Below are positions 2,810-13,558 of a stretch of DNA of 44,936 nt, piece after piece. The stretch lies in IMG/VR virus record IMGVR_UViG_3300045988_042992, positions 1-44,936 of that record. One strand, 5' to 3'. Made by a program: the position numbers and the translations under genes. This DNA is from a virus. The notes under the pieces were generated by a model that was given only the letters and a program-made list of their open reading frames with translations, searched no databases and was not told the origin of the DNA. Numbering within the stretch: the stretch's first letter is position 1; each line of letters begins with the position of its first letter.

Positions 2810-3172
2810 GTGGCATTTTACGAAAACTACGTGAAACTGTGCAATTTGGCGGGGAAATCTCCGTCGGCAGTTGCGGTTGAGCTAAAACTTGGTAAACCCT
2901 CTGTTACACGGTGGAAGCACGGGGCAGTTCCCAGGGACACCACCATTTTGAAGATAGCGGGCTACTTTGGTGTTTCAGTGGAAGAACTGACTCAAGACAC
3001 AAAAAAAGCGCCCACCCCAACAACGGAGAGTGAGCGCAGTAGGCAGATTGCCGCGCGTATCAGTGAGATTGTTTGTCAGCTGTATCCGGAGACACAGGAG
3101 AGCTGTTTGCAGTACTTTGAGAGCTTGCTTGCACTGCAAAACGCAGCGCAAGGTCGAGATATTCAGGCTTGA
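2810..3172 (+). CDS. XRE-family HTH regulator (120 aa), CI-like repressor candidate
   Basis: GTG start after GGAGG. ...LCNLAGKSPSAVAVELKLGKPSVTRWKHG... is an HTH_3 motif. It is the first gene of the rightward operon that ends with the integrase. Confidence 0.75.
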   Translation: MAFYENYVKLCNLAGKSPSAVAVELKLGKPSVTRWKHGAVPRDTTILKIAGYFGVSVEELTQDTKKAPTPTTESERSRQIAARISEIVCQLYPETQESCLQYFESLLALQNAAQGRDIQA

Positions 3173-3402
3173 GTTGGGACAGCACGTCCATTATCCTTTC
3201 CGTCAAGTAAGTTTGTTCCGACATAAGTAAATCCCCTTCCAAGTAAAAATGTTTTCACCTATTCCCCCAAATAGGACAAATATTGCATACCGCGTTGCCC
3301 TATAATAGGCAACAAAGGGATAGATCTTGGGTTATGTTGGCCCCGCCGCCCCCGCACCGGGCGGCAGGGCCGATATAGCAGATAGCCCATCAGGCTGTCA
3401 TC

Positions 3403-7812: not shown

Positions 7813-8052
7813 CTATTGATTTGTCAGCGCGTCAACAATTTTCGACAATGCCCTGCGGCGGTTTCTCTTGACGCTTTCCGGCGAGACGTGAAGCGCGTTG
7901 GAAACTTGTATATAAGACTTTCGGCGGATATCGCACAAAATAATGCACGATTCCTCATCTTCCGGCAAATCGAAAGATTGGACAAATTCCAAAGCTCTCT
8001 TAGGAGCCATGCTGGAAATGTAGTACCGAACGGCTTTGCGACTATTATCCAT
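7813..8052 (-). CDS. Small sigma-70 region-4-like HTH protein
   Basis: ...SYIQVSNALHVSPESVKRNRRRALSKIVDAL resembles sigma region 4 / LuxR-type HTH. The start is uncertain because no clear SD is present. Confidence 0.45.
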   Translation of the reverse strand: MDNSRKAVRYYISSMAPKRALEFVQSFDLPEDEESCIILCDIRRKSYIQVSNALHVSPESVKRNRRRALSKIVDALTNQ

Positions 8053-8138
8053 GGCAAAATAAAAGCCGTGGGCGTGCGGGCGCAATGCGCGGGCAGGGAG
8101 CGCGGCGTTACGTCACTCCCCGCCGTCCAGAATGTTTC

Positions 8139-8825
8139 TTACTTCTTTCCCTTCACCACAAACCCGGCAAACCCTGCCGCTTTCAGCTTTTCCAGCATCC
8201 TGTCGGCGTTGGCGCGGACGGCAAAGGCCCCCACCTGGACCCGGTACAGGGTATCGCCCTGGGCAGGCTCGGCGGGCTTGGGAGTCTCCTGCTTGGCCGG
8301 GACGTATTTCACGCCCAGATACTCACACAGGCCCTTGGCGATGGCCTCACCGATGTCCGTGGTGTGCTCCACGATCCACTTGGCACCCTCGGCGGTGTCG
8401 TGAAACTCGCACTCGCAGTACACCGACGGCGCATTAGGTACACGCACCTCATACAGCCGGGGGTTGGCCTGGATGTTTTCAGACGCTCCCGGCGTCAGCG
8501 GGGCCAGCTCCGCGAACACGGCCTTGCAGGCGTCGTAGCCCTTGCCGGGGATGGCATAGCAGAACAGCCGGGTGCCCATGACCTTGCCGTTGGCGGCGTT
8601 GGTGTGGACGCAGTTGTGGATGTCCGCGCCCCAGGCATCGGACTCGGCACAGCGCTGGGCCATGGTGGTGCCGAAGGCCGCCAGCTTCACCTCCACGCCG
8701 CTGCGGCGCAGGGCGGCAGCCTCCGCCTCGGCGATCTTCTGGCACTGGACGTGCTCGTTGGTATTGCCCCAGGCATAGCGGTTTTCCGTCTGGTCGCTGG
8801 GGCTGATGTACACTCGCTTACTCAT
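8139..8825 (-). CDS. Endolysin: N-acetylmuramoyl-L-alanine amidase with a C-terminal SPOR-like domain
   Basis: The N-terminal domain is amidase_3-like (...VHTNAANG...CECEFHD...). The C-terminus LYRVQVGAFAVRANADRMLEKLKAAGFAGFVV is SPOR-like. It lies directly downstream of the holin. Confidence 0.85.
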   Translation of the reverse strand: MSKRVYISPSDQTENRYAWGNTNEHVQCQKIAEAEAAALRRSGVEVKLAAFGTTMAQRCAESDAWGADIHNCVHTNAANGKVMGTRLFCYAIPGKGYDACKAVFAELAPLTPGASENIQANPRLYEVRVPNAPSVYCECEFHDTAEGAKWIVEHTTDIGEAIAKGLCEYLGVKYVPAKQETPKPAEPAQGDTLYRVQVGAFAVRANADRMLEKLKAAGFAGFVVKGKK

Positions 8826-9291
8826 TGTTGTTGTCCTCCTCTCCCGGCAGCTTGTTCGCCGCCGTGTCCTCGGTGTGTACTTTCAACTTTTTCAGCAGCG
8901 CCTGGAGGAAACCAGGCACCGGTGCACCAATGGCAGACACATTTTCCAGGATGGACAGCAGCTCGTTGATCACCAGCCAGATAATGACGATGCTGGCAAA
9001 CAGGAACTCCACCGGCCAGTCCCAGCCCAGGGTGTCGGCTCCGTAGCGCAGCAGCCAGTCTACCACAGCGGCCACGGCGACGATGACCAGGTATCCAACC
9101 TTCTTCAGGATGCCCCGCAGGCCCACCCGGGAGGACAGCTCCCCGGCGTTCCATGCCTTGGTCATGCCCGTGGCGTAGTCCAGCAGCATCACCACCACCA
9201 GAACCAGCACCGGTACCAGCAGCTGCACCCCGTAGGCACACAGCGCCCCCAGGGCGGCCGCCATAGCGGCCTTGATCGCGTTTTCTTTCAT
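8818..9291 (-). CDS. Holin (phage_holin_4/TcdE-like, about 157 aa)
   Basis: GGAG-ATG start at 9291. It has multiple TM segments and the ...VINELLSILENVSAIGAPVPGFL motif typical of this holin family. Confidence 0.8.
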   Translation of the reverse strand: MKENAIKAAMAAALGALCAYGVQLLVPVLVLVVVMLLDYATGMTKAWNAGELSSRVGLRGILKKVGYLVIVAVAAVVDWLLRYGADTLGWDWPVEFLFASIVIIWLVINELLSILENVSAIGAPVPGFLQALLKKLKVHTEDTAANKLPGEEDNNNE

Positions 9292-9356
9292 GTAAAATCT
9301 CCTTTCAATTTGTGATTTTGCTTTATTTTTTGTGTAATATTTGGCTATTTCGCCAA

Positions 9357-9385
9357 TTGACTTGTACGCACAATAGGCGTACAAT
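9357..9385 (+). promoter_or_regulatory. Near-consensus promoter TTGACT-17-TACAAT for the reverse-oriented cassette
   Basis: TTGACT at 9357-9362, 17-nt spacer, TACAAT at 9380-9385. Confidence 0.7.
9363..9383. promoter_or_regulatory. Operator-like perfect palindrome TGTACGC-N7-GCGTACA inside the promoter spacer and -10
   Basis: Read directly. The arms are 9363-9369 and 9377-9383. Confidence 0.55.
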
Positions 9386-9437
9386 ATAACCAAGTTAAAG
9401 GTAACGGACAGGCCGCAAGGCCGGAAAGGACAACATT

Positions 9438-9830
9438 ATGGATATCATCGAGAGAATGGGCCAACTCCACAGCGGCAGTGCCAGACTGCTTGTATACAAC
9501 CTCGGCGGGGACCCGATGCAGATCATCAACGACTGGCAGTCCCGGATCGGCGACAGCGTACCCCTTGCGGATTGGTTTGGCGGCGCGAACACCTTAACGT
9601 TGGACGACGCAGCCAACGGCGCGTACTGGGACATTGTCAAGTACGCCAAGTCCCTCTACTTTGCCCCCATGACCAGGGAGACCGCCGTAACTGTCGCAAA
9701 CGCCATCACCTCCGTCGGCAAGCTCCGTCTCGCTGACGACATCGAGTTTACGGACATCGCATTCGCGGATGCGTGGAGCAAGGCCCACCCCGACCAGCCC
9801 CGCATTAGCCGCAACGTTGACATTGGATAA
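9438..9830 (+). CDS. Hypothetical protein (130 aa), cassette gene 1
   Basis: ORF track; SD GAAAGGA; no family recognised. Confidence 0.6.
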   Translation: MDIIERMGQLHSGSARLLVYNLGGDPMQIINDWQSRIGDSVPLADWFGGANTLTLDDAANGAYWDIVKYAKSLYFAPMTRETAVTVANAITSVGKLRLADDIEFTDIAFADAWSKAHPDQPRISRNVDIG

Positions 9831-9844
9831 GGAGGATTACGACC

Positions 9845-10156
9845 ATGGCAAAGACTACACAGCTGACCAACGAGCAGGTCAAGGCGCTTGCCGTCATCTA
9901 CGCCGCCTGCTATCGCGCCACAGACAGCGACAATCTCACGGACACACTTAACGCGCAGCGGTTCCCGCTGAAAATGGCCTCGCGCTACGTCCACAAACTG
10001 CACGACATGCGTGCAAGCACCCCCGATATCGAGCGGCTTATAGCCGAGCAATACGCCAAGATCGACGACGACACGGCCCAGGCTCGCTTTGACACCTGCC
10101 TGTCGATGGAGCAGCAGGGTGTCTGGTCGCTGGCATACAGCCGCGCAATGGATTGA
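9845..10156 (+). CDS. Hypothetical protein (103 aa), cassette gene 2
   Basis: ORF track; SD AGGAGG; no family recognised. Confidence 0.6.
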   Translation: MAKTTQLTNEQVKALAVIYAACYRATDSDNLTDTLNAQRFPLKMASRYVHKLHDMRASTPDIERLIAEQYAKIDDDTAQARFDTCLSMEQQGVWSLAYSRAMD

Positions 10157-10167
10157 TGGAGGACAGG

Positions 10168-10308
10168 ATGGCCAAGACAGAGCGCCTATACATCCGGCTC
10201 ACGCCGGAGTTAAAAGAGAAGATCCAGGCCGCCGCCGAGGCGGAGGGCCGTAGCATCTCAAACTACGTCGAGCGCCTGATAACGCAGGCGCTCAAGCGGG
10301 AGGGCTAA
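10168..10308 (+). CDS. Ribbon-helix-helix (CopG/Arc-type) protein, 46 aa; below the ORF-track cutoff
   Basis: Hand translation gives MAKTERLYIRLTPELKEKIQAAAEAEGRSISNYVERLITQALKREG, a classic RHH pattern. SD GGAGG. Confidence 0.7.
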   Translation: MAKTERLYIRLTPELKEKIQAAAEAEGRSISNYVERLITQALKREG

Positions 10309-10324
10309 TCGCCCTCCTTTTTTT
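10299..10324 (+). terminator. Rho-independent terminator of the cassette
   Basis: GGAGGGC-taatc-GCCCTCC followed by seven T. Confidence 0.8.
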
Positions 10325-10379
10325 GCGCCTTGGATGGCAAACCTTTCGGTGCCCAAATCGGGCACAAGCCAGCATCCAA

Positions 10380-10541
10380 TTACACGTCCGTCTCGATCCC
10401 GTACCGCTCAAACATTGCGCGGATGGCGGGATTGCGCAGCAGCTTTTTGCGCTGGCCCTGATTCAGCTCGGCAAGCACCGTCTGCAGCGCGGCCTTGATC
10501 TCGGCGTTGTACGCGATAACGCGATCTCGCAGCTCACTCAT
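10380..10541 (-). CDS. Small hypothetical protein (53 aa); below the ORF-track cutoff
   Basis: Hand translation gives MSELRDRVIAYNAEIKAALQTVLAELNQGQRKKLLRNPAIRAMFERYGIETDV. ATGA overlap with the upstream gene. Confidence 0.5.
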   Translation of the reverse strand: MSELRDRVIAYNAEIKAALQTVLAELNQGQRKKLLRNPAIRAMFERYGIETDV

Positions 10542-10723
10542 GCCGTCACCCCCGACAGTAGCGCCTCCATTGCCTCGCGCAGTTCGGCGTTGTCCTGCTC
10601 CAGCGCGGCAATGCGTTCTTCTGCTGATGGTTCGGGCGCGGGTGCTTCCGCCGCCAACTTTTCCAGCTCCGCGACTTCCTCGGCGGTCATGTCGCGGTAA
10701 ATGCCGTTCTCGCAGATTCTCAT
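10538..10723 (-). CDS. Small coiled-coil protein downstream of the fibre genes (61 aa)
   Basis: Start MRICENGIYRDMTAEEVAELEKL...; the position is typical of small fibre-associated proteins. Confidence 0.5.
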   Translation of the reverse strand: MRICENGIYRDMTAEEVAELEKLAAEAPAPEPSAEERIAALEQDNAELREAMEALLSGVTA

Positions 10724-10793
10724 GACTTTACACCCCAAATCTCAATTTTTGTTCCGGCTTTAAGCAGCTCCGCTGTCTGGCACCCAAGCTCAG

Positions 10794-11351
10794 TTACGCC
10801 ATTGGGAGCGATGTTTTCCAACGCTGTGGTCTGGAGCCACCGATAAATCCATATGCAATAACGTTACTATTGGTACCAAGGCTTGCCTGTACATATGGCG
10901 GGTATACACTGTCAACTGCAAAGTATATTCCTTTGATGGAATTGACGTTGTAATTGAACAACGGGTACGAAACATTGTTGATGGAAATCCGTGTCCATCC
11001 AGAGTAAGCCTCACCACTAGCAATCGTGGGTGCGATAAGCACTTTGACCTTTTTGCAATTGTCAAAAGTATAAGTTACCGAATCGACCGACTCCGCGAGA
11101 GATGCGTCAACGAGCTTTTCCCACGTTTCGCCGCCTCCGCCTGACGCCATATCCACCGGCTCCCACGCGGTGGGCACGCCGGATGCGTCCACCGCAGCAA
11201 CCTTGGCAATCTGGCCGACCGTTGCGCCGGTGATGCCCATTCCCACGCCGTCCTTGCTTTCTAAGGCGAGGACGGCATCTTGTATATCATTTAAGTTTTT
11301 CGCAGTTATAATTGTTTGTCCACTTACATAATTTACCTTTTCAAGCGCCAT
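10794..11351 (-). CDS. Tail fibre / receptor-binding protein (185 aa)
   Basis: AAAGGAGG start. The N-terminal ...TAKNLNDIQDAVLALE and ...GATVGQIAKVAAVDASGVPTAWEPV motifs are common in Firmicute phage fibre proteins. Confidence 0.6.
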   Translation of the reverse strand: MALEKVNYVSGQTIITAKNLNDIQDAVLALESKDGVGMGITGATVGQIAKVAAVDASGVPTAWEPVDMASGGGGETWEKLVDASLAESVDSVTYTFDNCKKVKVLIAPTIASGEAYSGWTRISINNVSYPLFNYNVNSIKGIYFAVDSVYPPYVQASLGTNSNVIAYGFIGGSRPQRWKTSLPMA

Positions 11352-11364
11352 CTTTAATCCTCCT

Positions 11365-11817
11365 TTATCCGGCAATTGCCTTAATTGGGTGTGCGGCCAG
11401 ATAATCAGCAACCGCCTTGGCGATGTCATCCGGGTCTACGCCACCCATCCCCTTGATAAGCTCCATCAGCTGGTCGTACACGTCTGGCGTGGGGTTGGCG
11501 GGAGCGCCGCTGGCAGACCGCACGGATGACAGCGCCCGCAAGAGCGCCATGCGGCTGGTGTGGATGTCCCCGGCGTAGAGTCCGATCTGCACACACCCGG
11601 GCACAGGCACCGGAGGCAGAGCCACGCTGTCACCGGTAAACACGGTGTCGGTGTAGGTGCCGTCCATGTAGATCACGCGCATGGTCTTGGTGTCGTATGC
11701 GCTCCATTCCTCGTCCAGGCCCCAGTGTACGATATAATCGCTGTTGTCGCACACAACGGTCGTCCCGGCGGTGCATACCGGGCGCTTATCGGTGACGGTA
11801 ATGTTGATATCAGGCAT
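11365..11817 (-). CDS. Tail-associated hypothetical protein (150 aa)
   Basis: AAAGGAG start at 11817 (MPDINITVTDK...). It lies between two fibre-type genes. Confidence 0.55.
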   Translation of the reverse strand: MPDINITVTDKRPVCTAGTTVVCDNSDYIVHWGLDEEWSAYDTKTMRVIYMDGTYTDTVFTGDSVALPPVPVPGCVQIGLYAGDIHTSRMALLRALSSVRSASGAPANPTPDVYDQLMELIKGMGGVDPDDIAKAVADYLAAHPIKAIAG

Positions 11818-11830
11818 GTAATACACTCCT

Positions 11831-13558
11831 TTATGCCGTCCTGCGCCATGTGTACACGGCCAGGTACGGCGGCATATTGTTGTGGGGCTGGTCCCCGCAA
11901 TCGGACGTAGCCTTGCCCGTGTAAGCGTTGTACTGGGTACTCGCAGCTTCATATAGGCGGATGGCGTTGACGCCCTCCGTAATGCTCTGGCCCGTGTAAT
12001 CGTAGCCGTGGGTGTGGTTTGCCATCTCCGCCGCCGTCAGGACGTGCTCCTCCTCGCCGCCGGTAGAGCCAGCGGCATGGGAGTCACCCGCCGCCAGCAG
12101 GAATACGTCCTTGACCTGCTCCCACATCCCGCCGAACAGTTCCGACGGGGAGGTGGAATCTGTGGACTGGTAGATGCTGCCGACGGGGTGGAGGTAGTCC
12201 AATAGAGATTTCCCCAAATACAGGATGGGCCATTTAAACTCCACCACCTTTTCGTGTTCCGCCACGCCGCCGAAGCATACCCCGGGCAGGGAAAAACTCA
12301 TGTTCATGGGGACCGAAACGGTGGGGATGGTGATCTCCCGCGTTACCGTGGTACCCAGGGAATCCGCAGCTTTGACCTGTACAACGCTGGTCGTGTCCGT
12401 ACCAAAGGCAACCAGATACACAATCTTCGCGCCACTGGTCTGGTCGGTCAGCGTGGGCGCGCCGGTAATTTCCACAGATGCCTTGTTCCCGGTCAGCTGG
12501 AGGGACAGGGTGAACGTCAGCTTGATGTCCGCGCCCATGGCGTTATCCGTCCACACGCTGTTCGCGTAAGAGCCGCGCACAAAGGTCAAATCCTGGACCA
12601 CTGGGCCGCTGTACGCGTTCACGGTGATGTTCTGGGTAACAGATGCCGTGCGCCCTCTGCTATCCGTGACGGTGGCTACAACGGCCATTGTGCCGCTTCC
12701 TGTAAGTACGTTGGCCCCGTCCGGGCTGGCGGCTTTTCCGCCGATGGTCAGAGACTTGACCTTGATGGTACTGCCATAAGACCCAGCGGCAGCAAACGTA
12801 GCTTTCAAAGTGCTCTTGCCCTGTACCCAGCCGTATGTGGGCAGATATCCGGAGGTGTCGGACAGACTCACGGACAGGGTGGGTCTTACCGATGCAGGGA
12901 TGGATGCCGTCAGCGTGGTCGTATTGGTGCCCACCACGGTGTCCCCGTTGTAGGTGGTGATCTCCGCCGCGATGTTTACGGAGATTCCGGACGTATTCTG
13001 CGCGGCCCAATCCAAGGGCGGCGTGTACGGAATGGATATGGCGCTGGATTTTGTCACCACAGTTACCTGTGCCGCAGAGCCACACTTGAGTTTGATGGTG
13101 TGCGTAAAAGTGCTCACGGCCCGGGTCACTGTAAGTGAACCGGCAGAACCCAGCACAAGCCCGGTCGCTGAAACGGAAGATGCCCGGGGGATATCCGGGA
13201 GATTGACCGTGCCTGAAACCGTCAGGCTGGACGGTGTGTAGGATGATGTAAACCCACTGTGCCAGTCCGCAGAAAGAACCACAGACCCCTTGCCCATATT
13301 GTTATGGGCCACGGTGATGGACTTGCTGCCCAGCTTGTACCAGCCCCTGGAATTGTACCGGTACGGGTTATAAACCTTGGTGCCTTGCAGAGTGTAATAG
13401 CAACTATTGGCGTCCAGGTTGTAGCTCTCGCCGGTGCCGTCATAGATGTACAGCGTAAGGGCCAGCGTGGACTTGTTGTCCGCGATGCTCTGGGATACGC
13501 TGTAATCCAGCCGCAATTGCCAGCCGGTGGCTGATACCGGCCCATAAATGCTTGCCAT
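11831..13558 (-). CDS. Large tail fibre / baseplate protein with a C-terminal tail-collar-like domain
   Basis: The C-terminus HPVGSIYQSTDSTSPSELFGGMWEQV...HVLTAAEMANHTHG...QPHNNMPPYLAVYTWRRTA matches the phage tail-collar fibre motif. The N-terminal part resembles the siphovirus DUF859-type. Confidence 0.75.
   Translation of the reverse strand: MASIYGPVSATGWQLRLDYSVSQSIADNKSTLALTLYIYDGTGESYNLDANSCYYTLQGTKVYNPYRYNSRGWYKLGSKSITVAHNNMGKGSVVLSADWHSGFTSSYTPSSLTVSGTVNLPDIPRASSVSATGLVLGSAGSLTVTRAVSTFTHTIKLKCGSAAQVTVVTKSSAISIPYTPPLDWAAQNTSGISVNIAAEITTYNGDTVVGTNTTTLTASIPASVRPTLSVSLSDTSGYLPTYGWVQGKSTLKATFAAAGSYGSTIKVKSLTIGGKAASPDGANVLTGSGTMAVVATVTDSRGRTASVTQNITVNAYSGPVVQDLTFVRGSYANSVWTDNAMGADIKLTFTLSLQLTGNKASVEITGAPTLTDQTSGAKIVYLVAFGTDTTSVVQVKAADSLGTTVTREITIPTVSVPMNMSFSLPGVCFGGVAEHEKVVEFKWPILYLGKSLLDYLHPVGSIYQSTDSTSPSELFGGMWEQVKDVFLLAAGDSHAAGSTGGEEEHVLTAAEMANHTHGYDYTGQSITEGVNAIRLYEAASTQYNAYTGKATSDCGDQPHNNMPPYLAVYTWRRTA

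Follow-up and report, generated by a model that had tools for sequence, protein, structure and literature searches.

The subject of this analysis is a three-gene cassette in the virus record IMGVR_UViG_3300045988_042992, the complete 44,936-bp sequence of which, with its terminal repeats, was analyzed and is referred to below as the window. The cassette spans positions 9357–10325 of the plus strand and forms a compact transcription unit, with genes for a 130-amino-acid (aa) protein (A), a 103-aa protein (B) and a 46-aa ribbon-helix-helix (RHH) protein lying between one promoter and one terminator. Its features, in order along the strand, are:

9357–9385, plus strand: sigma-70-type promoter TTGACT-17-TACAAT, 10/12 consensus (TTGACT at 9357–9362, a 17-nt spacer, TACAAT at 9380–9385); the same promoter precedes all RHH-bearing relatives.
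9363–9383, no strand: operator TGTACGC-ACAATAG-GCGTACA, a perfect palindrome of the form TGTACGC-N7-GCGTACA, extending over the spacer and four bases into the −10 hexamer.
9411–9422, plus strand: hairpin GGCC-GCAA-GGCC in the 5′ untranslated region (5′-UTR), just 5′ of the ribosome-binding site of gene A.
9438–9830, plus strand: gene A, 130 aa, acidic with an isoelectric point (pI) of 4.6; the constant cargo of this cassette lineage.
9845–10156, plus strand: gene B, 103 aa, six helices; a very probable orphan viral homologue of Cas11c and candidate type I-C anti-CRISPR.
10168–10308, plus strand: RHH gene, 46 aa, Arc/CopG-like; probable autorepressor, in the position of an anti-CRISPR-associated (aca) gene.
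10298–10325, plus strand: intrinsic terminator, with a stem-loop at 10298–10318, an 8-bp GC-rich stem, a loop that holds the stop codon of the RHH gene and a T7 tail.

An earlier reading made from the sequence alone (the sequence-only reading) had described this promoter, the perfect palindrome embedded in it, the three genes and the strong terminator, and each of these was recovered at the positions given there. The promoter is the best promoter-like site within positions 8000–12000. The open reading frames (ORFs) of A, B and the RHH protein show a clear coding signature, with a GC content at third codon positions of 0.78–0.86 in a genome of 55% GC, and each has its own Shine–Dalgarno sequence. 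The 43-nt stretch enclosing the terminator (10290–10332) folds at −19.7 kcal/mol (z = −3.28), and the terminator sequence is identical in relatives. The 5′-UTR hairpin appears in both the minimum-energy and the centroid fold, and is not significant when taken alone (z = −1.15).

Searches of Pfam, PHROGs, PADLOC and NCBIfam returned nothing above threshold for B. Its only Pfam match, a weak one, is to Cas_Csd1 (Cas8c), covering positions 500–552 of the 559 in the profile with an E-value of 0.074. The AlphaFold2 (AF2) model of B, with a predicted local distance difference test (pLDDT) score of 92.9, consists of six helices, and the top eight Foldseek matches to this model in the PDB are all type I-C Cascade chains that contain Cas11c or the Cas8c C-terminus (9jhb_B, 9jhc_A, 8dej_I, 8g9s_K/H/L, 8gaf_H and 8g9t_K), with probabilities of 0.23–0.95, template modelling (TM) scores of 0.27–0.52 and E-values of 0.07–0.6. 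Seven of the eight have a probability of at least 0.72 and a TM score of 0.44–0.52, and all other matches have a probability of 0.1 or less.

To define the B family, a profile search of 1.84 billion proteins was carried out, yielding 38 matches of 51–209 aa. Alignment of 29 B-domain sequences with 13 genuine Cas8c proteins, which came from proteobacterial genomes and not from the host lineage, gave a Prob of 95.7 and an E-value of 9.8e-9 in hhalign. The alignment is collinear over ~95 residues and places B residues 8–102 on residues 448–549 of the 561 in Cas8c, that is, on the Cas11c region, and reversing either of the two alignments as a control gave a Prob of 0.4. The B family and Cas8c have the motif L-(S/T)-(L/M)-E-x-Q-G-x-(W/F)-x-(L/I)-(A/G)-Y in common, which takes the form HL(S/T)(I/L)E(D/E)QGRFAIGYYHQR in Cas8c and CL(S/T)(L/M)EQQGVWSLAY in the B family, some members of which have LQGSFALGYYH. 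Because the Pfam, Foldseek and hhalign results agree, B can be regarded with high confidence as a homologue of Cas11c, the small subunit of the type I-C Cascade, in the form of a divergent counterpart of the Cas8c C-terminal domain.

Several results weigh against this assignment and indicate at the least that the relationship is remote. The Cas_Csd1 match scores 12.1 bits, below the Pfam gathering threshold of 27; the fold match is moderate, since seven of the eight chains reach TM scores of just 0.44–0.52; and none of the 38 HMMER matches of the B profile among the 1.84 billion proteins is a Cas8c. The hhalign Prob drops to 21 when close relatives of B alone are used, the identity between B and Cas8c in the hhalign alignment is ~22%, and a sequence-profile search of the PDB with the B alignment gave no meaningful match.

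No other match to the Cas_Csd1/Cas8c family was found in the complete 44.9-kb phage genome, so B is an orphan, located outside any type I-C cas operon. Compared with Cas11c itself (the C-terminus of PF09709; 8g9s_H, 9jhb_B, 8dej_I), B is modelled as a helical bundle of equal length with common motifs but stands alone in a phage cassette, is acidic and falls below the Pfam threshold, whereas Cas11c lies inside cas8c and is basic. The charge difference extends to the families: 23 of 29 B domains carry a negative net charge (the pI of B is 5.6) and 12 of 13 Cas8c C-termini a positive one, a shift that, as calculated from the sequences, fits the loss of a nucleic-acid-facing surface. What is new here is that B can be recognized as Cas11c-like.

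The sequence-only reading had found both larger proteins unrecognizable, a description that no longer applies to B and still applies to A. The structure search it had proposed was run with Foldseek on the models of both proteins, leading to type I-C chains for B and to no PDB match for A (best E-value 4.3), although the AF2 model of A is itself confident (pLDDT 89). Against BFVD, the A model found three matches, all of them uncharacterized phage proteins. A has no match in Pfam, PHROGs, PADLOC or NCBIfam, tblastn against 50,697 GenBank phage records returned nothing, the A alignment gave no meaningful match in a sequence-profile search of the PDB, and hhalign of A against Cas8c gave a Prob of 0.3. 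A second profile search collected 58 relatives of A, with no informative fusions or domains. A thus appears, from its model, to adopt a confidently predicted fold without known relative. A match of A or B to ordinary structural or assembly proteins, which would have told against the sequence-only reading, was not found.

The third protein was identified correctly at the outset as an RHH protein: it scores above the Pfam thresholds for RHH_5 (1.8e-7), RHH_1, Arc, TacA1, NikA-like and HicB families, and its PHROG match is an Arc-like repressor (5.7e-9). In the PDB, the sequences nearest to it are those of P22 Arc and Mnt, with an alignment that runs end to end (Arc has 53 aa), and judged by its sequence the 46-aa protein is a bare DNA-binding fold with no additional region. 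An alternative in-frame start, ATG at 10156, would give 50 aa and overlaps the stop codon of B, and the ORF list opens the frame at TTG 10153 (51 aa); the start of the RHH protein is conserved among relatives as M-x-K-T-E-R-L-Y.

The operator palindrome occurs in a single perfect copy in the 44.9-kb genome, and the whole-genome search found no second copy elsewhere in the phage, which would have been a sign of another regulated operon. For comparison, we assembled related loci, among them 21 with the RHH gene and three with an HTH_3 gene, encoding a helix-turn-helix (HTH) protein. The palindrome arms, 7 bp each, are invariant in 20 of the 21 RHH-carrying loci, where the −35 hexamer (TTGACT, TTGATT or TTGTAT) and the 7-nt centre both differ, and on this comparison of sequences the conservation of the palindrome exceeds chance. 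In the three more distant loci (L024–L026), A is 68% identical and is followed by the HTH_3 protein in place of the RHH protein; their promoter is TTGACA-17-TATAAT, and a different palindrome, (TA)CGCTAAT/ATTAGCG(TA), occupies the same position. Conversely, a cassette with an unrelated first cargo gene and a ~75%-similar RHH protein has the near-identical operator TTGACT-TGTACGCACAAATGGTG-TACAAT. The constancy of the arms and the co-variation of regulator and operator imply that the two travel together. The RHH protein therefore very probably represses its own operon through the palindrome, as had been suggested before, with both repression and binding inferred from this co-variation.

While the regulatory parts persist, the cargo changes. 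The gene order A-B-RHH is found in the window and four other loci; nine loci have a gene for a 99-aa double-HTH protein, then A and RHH; four have A-RHH; and one (L012) has the 99-aa gene, A, a gene for a 228-aa pentapeptide-repeat protein and RHH. The gene for the RHH or HTH protein is the last one in 24/24 loci. The cargo is thus modular, and promoter, operator, RHH gene and terminator are constant. Near-identical cassettes exist with and without B, indicating that the RHH protein works without B and that B is cargo and not a required part of the regulator. The pentapeptide-repeat gene (L012 3408–3443) has its first 12 codons in common with B (window 9845–9880), and the M-A-K-T start is common to B, the RHH protein (window 10168–10180) and the L012 pentapeptide-repeat protein, so that cargo or modules seem to be exchanged by recombination at the starts of genes. 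One protein of the collection, P0035, is a frameshifted read-through product of A and RHH, and its cassette lacks B between the two genes.

The variants with the 99-aa gene show a duplication of the 5′-UTR together with its small hairpin, one copy lying before the inserted gene. In relatives the stem of the hairpin is retained and the loops vary. A short GC hairpin in the 5′-UTR before the ribosome-binding site was seen in every cassette of this type, with unrelated sequences (window 9411–9422; L005 4621–4640 and 4975–4990; L001 4590–4602; L108 3672–3701); in L024–L026 it lies ~40 nt upstream of gene A. By analogy with the 5′-UTR motifs bound by Aca proteins, the hairpin could be an mRNA-stabilizing or a regulator-binding element. 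The 99-aa protein, encoded at L005 4651–4950 and not in the window, is very basic (pI 10) and has two separate HTH-like segments resembling sigma-70 region 3/4; possible roles are those of a second regulator or of an effector that binds DNA.

With small, variable and acidic cargo, a strong promoter whose −10 hexamer is overlapped by a palindrome, and a small DNA-binding gene in last position, the cassette has the layout of an anti-CRISPR (acr) operon with its aca gene. Small cargo genes and, after them, a small gene for a DNA-binding protein make up one operon, and an inverted repeat overlaps the core promoter and changes with the regulator. The order with the RHH gene last, which the sequence-only reading could not match to any system, is in fact the standard acr-aca order, and an RHH family of Aca proteins, Aca14, has been described, which binds an inverted repeat over the −10 element (NAR 2026 gkag862 / bioRxiv 10.64898/2026.07.27.740549). 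The same paper reports Acr proteins that include an RHH or HTH domain of their own, an RHH/HTH swap in AcrIF25 and RNA structures in acr 5′-UTRs (gkag862). Going by that description, the window cassette resembles the Aca14 operon in having a small RHH gene after the cargo, an inverted repeat over −10 and a regulator that is interchangeable with an HTH protein, as well as a 5′-UTR structure of the kind reported for other Aca operons. It differs in that Aca14 is defined in Proteobacteria (Pasteurella), and the window operator, which contains GC, is of a different type.

A precedent for the cargo is provided by AcrIB4, a validated inhibitor that shares 38% identity with the final 90 residues of Cas8b and stops the type I-B Cascade before DNA binding, a replacement of Cas11 having been proposed (Katz et al., bioRxiv 10.1101/2023.06.24.545427). 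Both B and AcrIB4 are small orphan proteins of mobile elements, homologous to the last 90–100 residues of the Cascade large subunit, a part also made as Cas11, and B is likewise located outside any CRISPR-Cas locus, with members of its family elsewhere also found in phage contexts. The likeness rests on the equivalent region of the large subunit, Cas8c in the case of B and Cas8b in the case of AcrIB4. There are three differences: B belongs to subtype I-C and AcrIB4 to I-B (Listeria); B is ~22% identical to its Cas counterpart and is seen by profiles and fold only, compared with 38% for AcrIB4; and fusions to RHH or HTH domains are frequent in the B family.

On these grounds we give an even chance to the proposal that the cassette serves anti-defence, as an autoregulated operon of the acr-aca type carried by a temperate phage of gut Oscillospiraceae. 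Upon entry of the phage, the strong promoter would fire, and A, B and the RHH protein would be made. As the RHH protein builds up, it would bind the palindrome across the spacer and the −10 hexamer, throttling the operon to a low steady level, as it would in the prophage. B would act as a faulty subunit, either replacing Cas11c on the Cas7/Cas8c scaffold or binding the Cas8c C-terminal domain, such that no productive R-loop is formed or held, and A would be a second counter-defence protein. That B acts as an anti-CRISPR, a view that draws on its homology to Cas11c and on the analogy with AcrIB4, has about an even chance, and the assignment of A as a second counter-defence protein is tentative. 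The proposal is weakened by the fact that no Acr or Aca family name was returned for A, B or the RHH protein in Pfam, PHROGs or NCBIfam, and that gene A, the constant member of the cassette, has no assignable function. As a separate candidate, we considered a solitary type I-C repeat-like RNA anti-CRISPR in the window and rejected it, as no match to the repeat handle rose above chance and Rfam found tRNAs only.

The domain architectures of the B family bear on what B does. The domain occurs free-standing (~100 aa), with an N-terminal RHH domain (160 aa; frequent in a different group of gut phages), with a C-terminal RHH domain (P0092, in which it resembles the window RHH protein) and with a C-terminal XRE-type HTH domain; in P0124, it is preceded at the N-terminus by ~100 unassigned residues with the look of an HTH domain, although Pfam did not confirm this. 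In the phages with the RHH-B fusion, the fusion gene belongs to a two-gene unit bounded by terminators on both sides, with a perfect TTGACA-17-TATAAT promoter, in which the palindrome TATAGTGTT-T-AACACTATA is embedded, and a 5′-UTR hairpin after it. A free-standing B gene in another phage has TTGACA with TACCAC-N7-GTGGTA and a 10-bp 5′-UTR hairpin, in a cassette that lies in inverted orientation, with the terminase on one side and early genes on the other. Four B cassettes begin with genes for mutually unrelated proteins of 130, 122, 97 and 86 aa, indicating that B has no fixed partner; three of these proteins have a pI of 4.6–4.9 and the 97-aa protein one of 7.7. The 122-aa gene located before the RHH-B fusions was considered as a relative of A and turned out to be unrelated on comparison. 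In terms of architecture, these fusions resemble the self-regulating Acr-Aca fusions AcrIIA1, AcrIF24 and AcrIF25, in which an inhibitor is combined with a swappable DNA-binding domain, the B family having N-terminal RHH, C-terminal RHH and C-terminal HTH forms; in the window, by contrast, B and the RHH protein are encoded by separate genes.

The phages with the RHH-B fusion also have an Acb2/Tad1-hairpin gene, 1.7 kb upstream of the fusion gene. Its product, encoded at 3109–3309 in both L002 and L003, is a 66-aa Acb2/Tad1 hairpin-domain protein scoring 38.7 bits in Pfam, over threshold. The stretch from there to the RHH-B gene holds small unassigned genes situated between the tail and lysis modules, and is possibly a counter-defence island of that phage group.

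The same fusions allow a different explanation, in which B is a regulatory or oligomerization domain, a Cas11c-derived fold reused in transcription factors, so that A would be the effector and B and the RHH protein a two-part regulator, with no action on CRISPR. The repeated fusion to RHH and HTH domains at either end of B favors it. So does the pairing of B-HTH fusions with a conserved protein: each of the three such fusions is followed by a gene for a ~220-aa protein with two zinc-ribbon-like Cys-rich repeats and an AP2-like C-terminus (L104 862–1566; L105 850–1497; L106 4529–5191), and here the B domain may be part of a regulator and not of an inhibitor, a point that also tells against B as an anti-CRISPR. 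However, B is present in some and absent from other near-identical cassettes that have promoter, operator, A and RHH gene in common, an unrelated pentapeptide-repeat protein can fill the slot of B, and free-standing B genes are present in cassettes with other regulators. We therefore regard a purely regulatory B as unlikely.

A toxin–antitoxin (TA) or abortive-infection moron is a further alternative, with A as the toxin, encoded first, the RHH protein (or, in the distant relatives, a Cys-rich HTH protein) as the autoregulating antitoxin, and B as an accessory or second antitoxin-like protein. It would account for A always being followed by a small DNA-binding protein, for the matches of the RHH protein to the antitoxin families TacA1, ParD, HicB and RelB in Pfam and NCBIfam, and for autoregulation through a promoter palindrome, which is typical of type II TA systems; the HTH protein that replaces the RHH protein in L024–26 is also extended at its N-terminus by 34 aa, rich in Cys, which could bind a partner. 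The 46-aa RHH protein, on the other hand, has neither a neutralizing tail nor room for one that binds a toxin, A is acidic (pI 4.6), and its confident model matches no solved fold even though the PDB includes the main folds of type II toxins. PADLOC and NCBIfam gave nothing for A or B, cargo is inserted and removed around A while the cassette persists, and B is found with four unrelated first genes. Taking together the bare RHH protein, the acidic A without a toxin fold, the swapped cargo and the lack of a PADLOC match, anti-defence is favored, and a TA or abortive-infection function appears quite improbable. The sequence-only reading had likened the cassette to prophage morons with TA, abortive-infection or other defence or anti-defence functions; the self-contained accessory cassette of a temperate phage stands, and of the functions named there it is the anti-defence one that we retain.

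In P22, the Arc operator lies between the −35 and −10 elements of Pant, and immI lies within the late region. Very improbable is an antirepressor module similar to P22 immI (Pant-arc-ant), in which A and perhaps B would inactivate the repressor of the phage itself or of a rival and the Arc-like RHH protein would limit their synthesis: the Arc-sized repressor with P22 Arc and Mnt as its closest solved relatives over the full length, the Arc-like repressor as best PHROG match, the operator in the promoter spacer and the late-region position are features in common, but the gene order is reversed, with the RHH gene last and not first, the cassette has no Mnt-like second repressor for silencing in the lysogen, A and B resemble neither Ant nor any annotated antirepressor family of PHROG and Pfam, and both the descent of the B cargo from a Cascade subunit and the pentapeptide-repeat protein in the same slot would be left unexplained.

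Between ~5.5 and 26 kb, the ORFs of A, B and the RHH protein are the sole plus-strand ORFs with a coding signature outside the minus-strand genes, confirming the early description of the cassette as the only plus-strand unit of the late region, and its placement between the fibre and lysis modules likewise holds. Upstream are a holin (8818–9291, minus strand) and an Amidase_3/SPOR endolysin (minus strand), and downstream are small ORFs and tail-fibre genes (minus strand). The minus-strand genes directly downstream (window 10380–11429) encode 53, 66 and ~186–211 aa. At the same place in the relative L005 (5567–6853), they encode 202, 45 and 183 aa, the 183-aa gene having a weak CBM_5_12 match, and this difference between the two indicates that the distal tail-fibre end beside the cassette is also variable.

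Close relatives of the phage are prophages integrated beside an rnf operon and DJ-1 genes. In L093 (1–5420; also in L094–L096), a near-identical prophage adjoins the rnfD-G-E-A-B operon and two DJ-1/PfpI genes, and the exact flanking proteins are named from metagenome-assembled genomes of Oscillospiraceae, with a 90% cluster that includes Oscillibacter sp. CAG:241. Judging from these flanking proteins, the host family is probably gut Oscillospiraceae, close to Oscillibacter sp. CAG:241; under the proposed mechanism, the host would carry a type I-C system. A scan of species genomes for host identification gave just a spurious 15-residue match in Paraburkholderia, and the literature searched for a link between Oscillibacter and type I-C yielded nothing informative. 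The A protein of the L093 variant occurs in 1,042 contig-index blocks, and its cluster entry has 698 contigs, an abundance which makes this phage lineage a frequent one in gut metagenomes.

Few CRISPR subtypes are as common as type I-C, which is under development as a tool for genome editing by large deletions, and the known type I-C inhibitors come mostly from Pseudomonas-type elements. Somewhat short of an even chance is the broader reading that B and its relatives constitute a widespread, unnamed phage family derived from Cas11c that poisons the type I-C Cascade, many members with their own RHH or HTH autorepressor domain, and that these cassettes, recognizable by a consensus promoter, an embedded palindrome and a 5′-UTR hairpin, mark new counter-defence genes, including A, in phages of gut Clostridia. 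The grammar of the cassette, with a consensus promoter and embedded palindrome, variable acidic cargo and an RHH or HTH gene in last position, would offer a handle for finding such genes in poorly studied gut phages, and the failure of standard cas and acr profiles to detect the B family suggests that searches as now conducted overlook a class of counter-defence genes. If B acts as proposed, it would represent a second, independent phage use of the small subunit against Cascade, and this route to inhibition would be a general one and not a peculiarity of Listeria.

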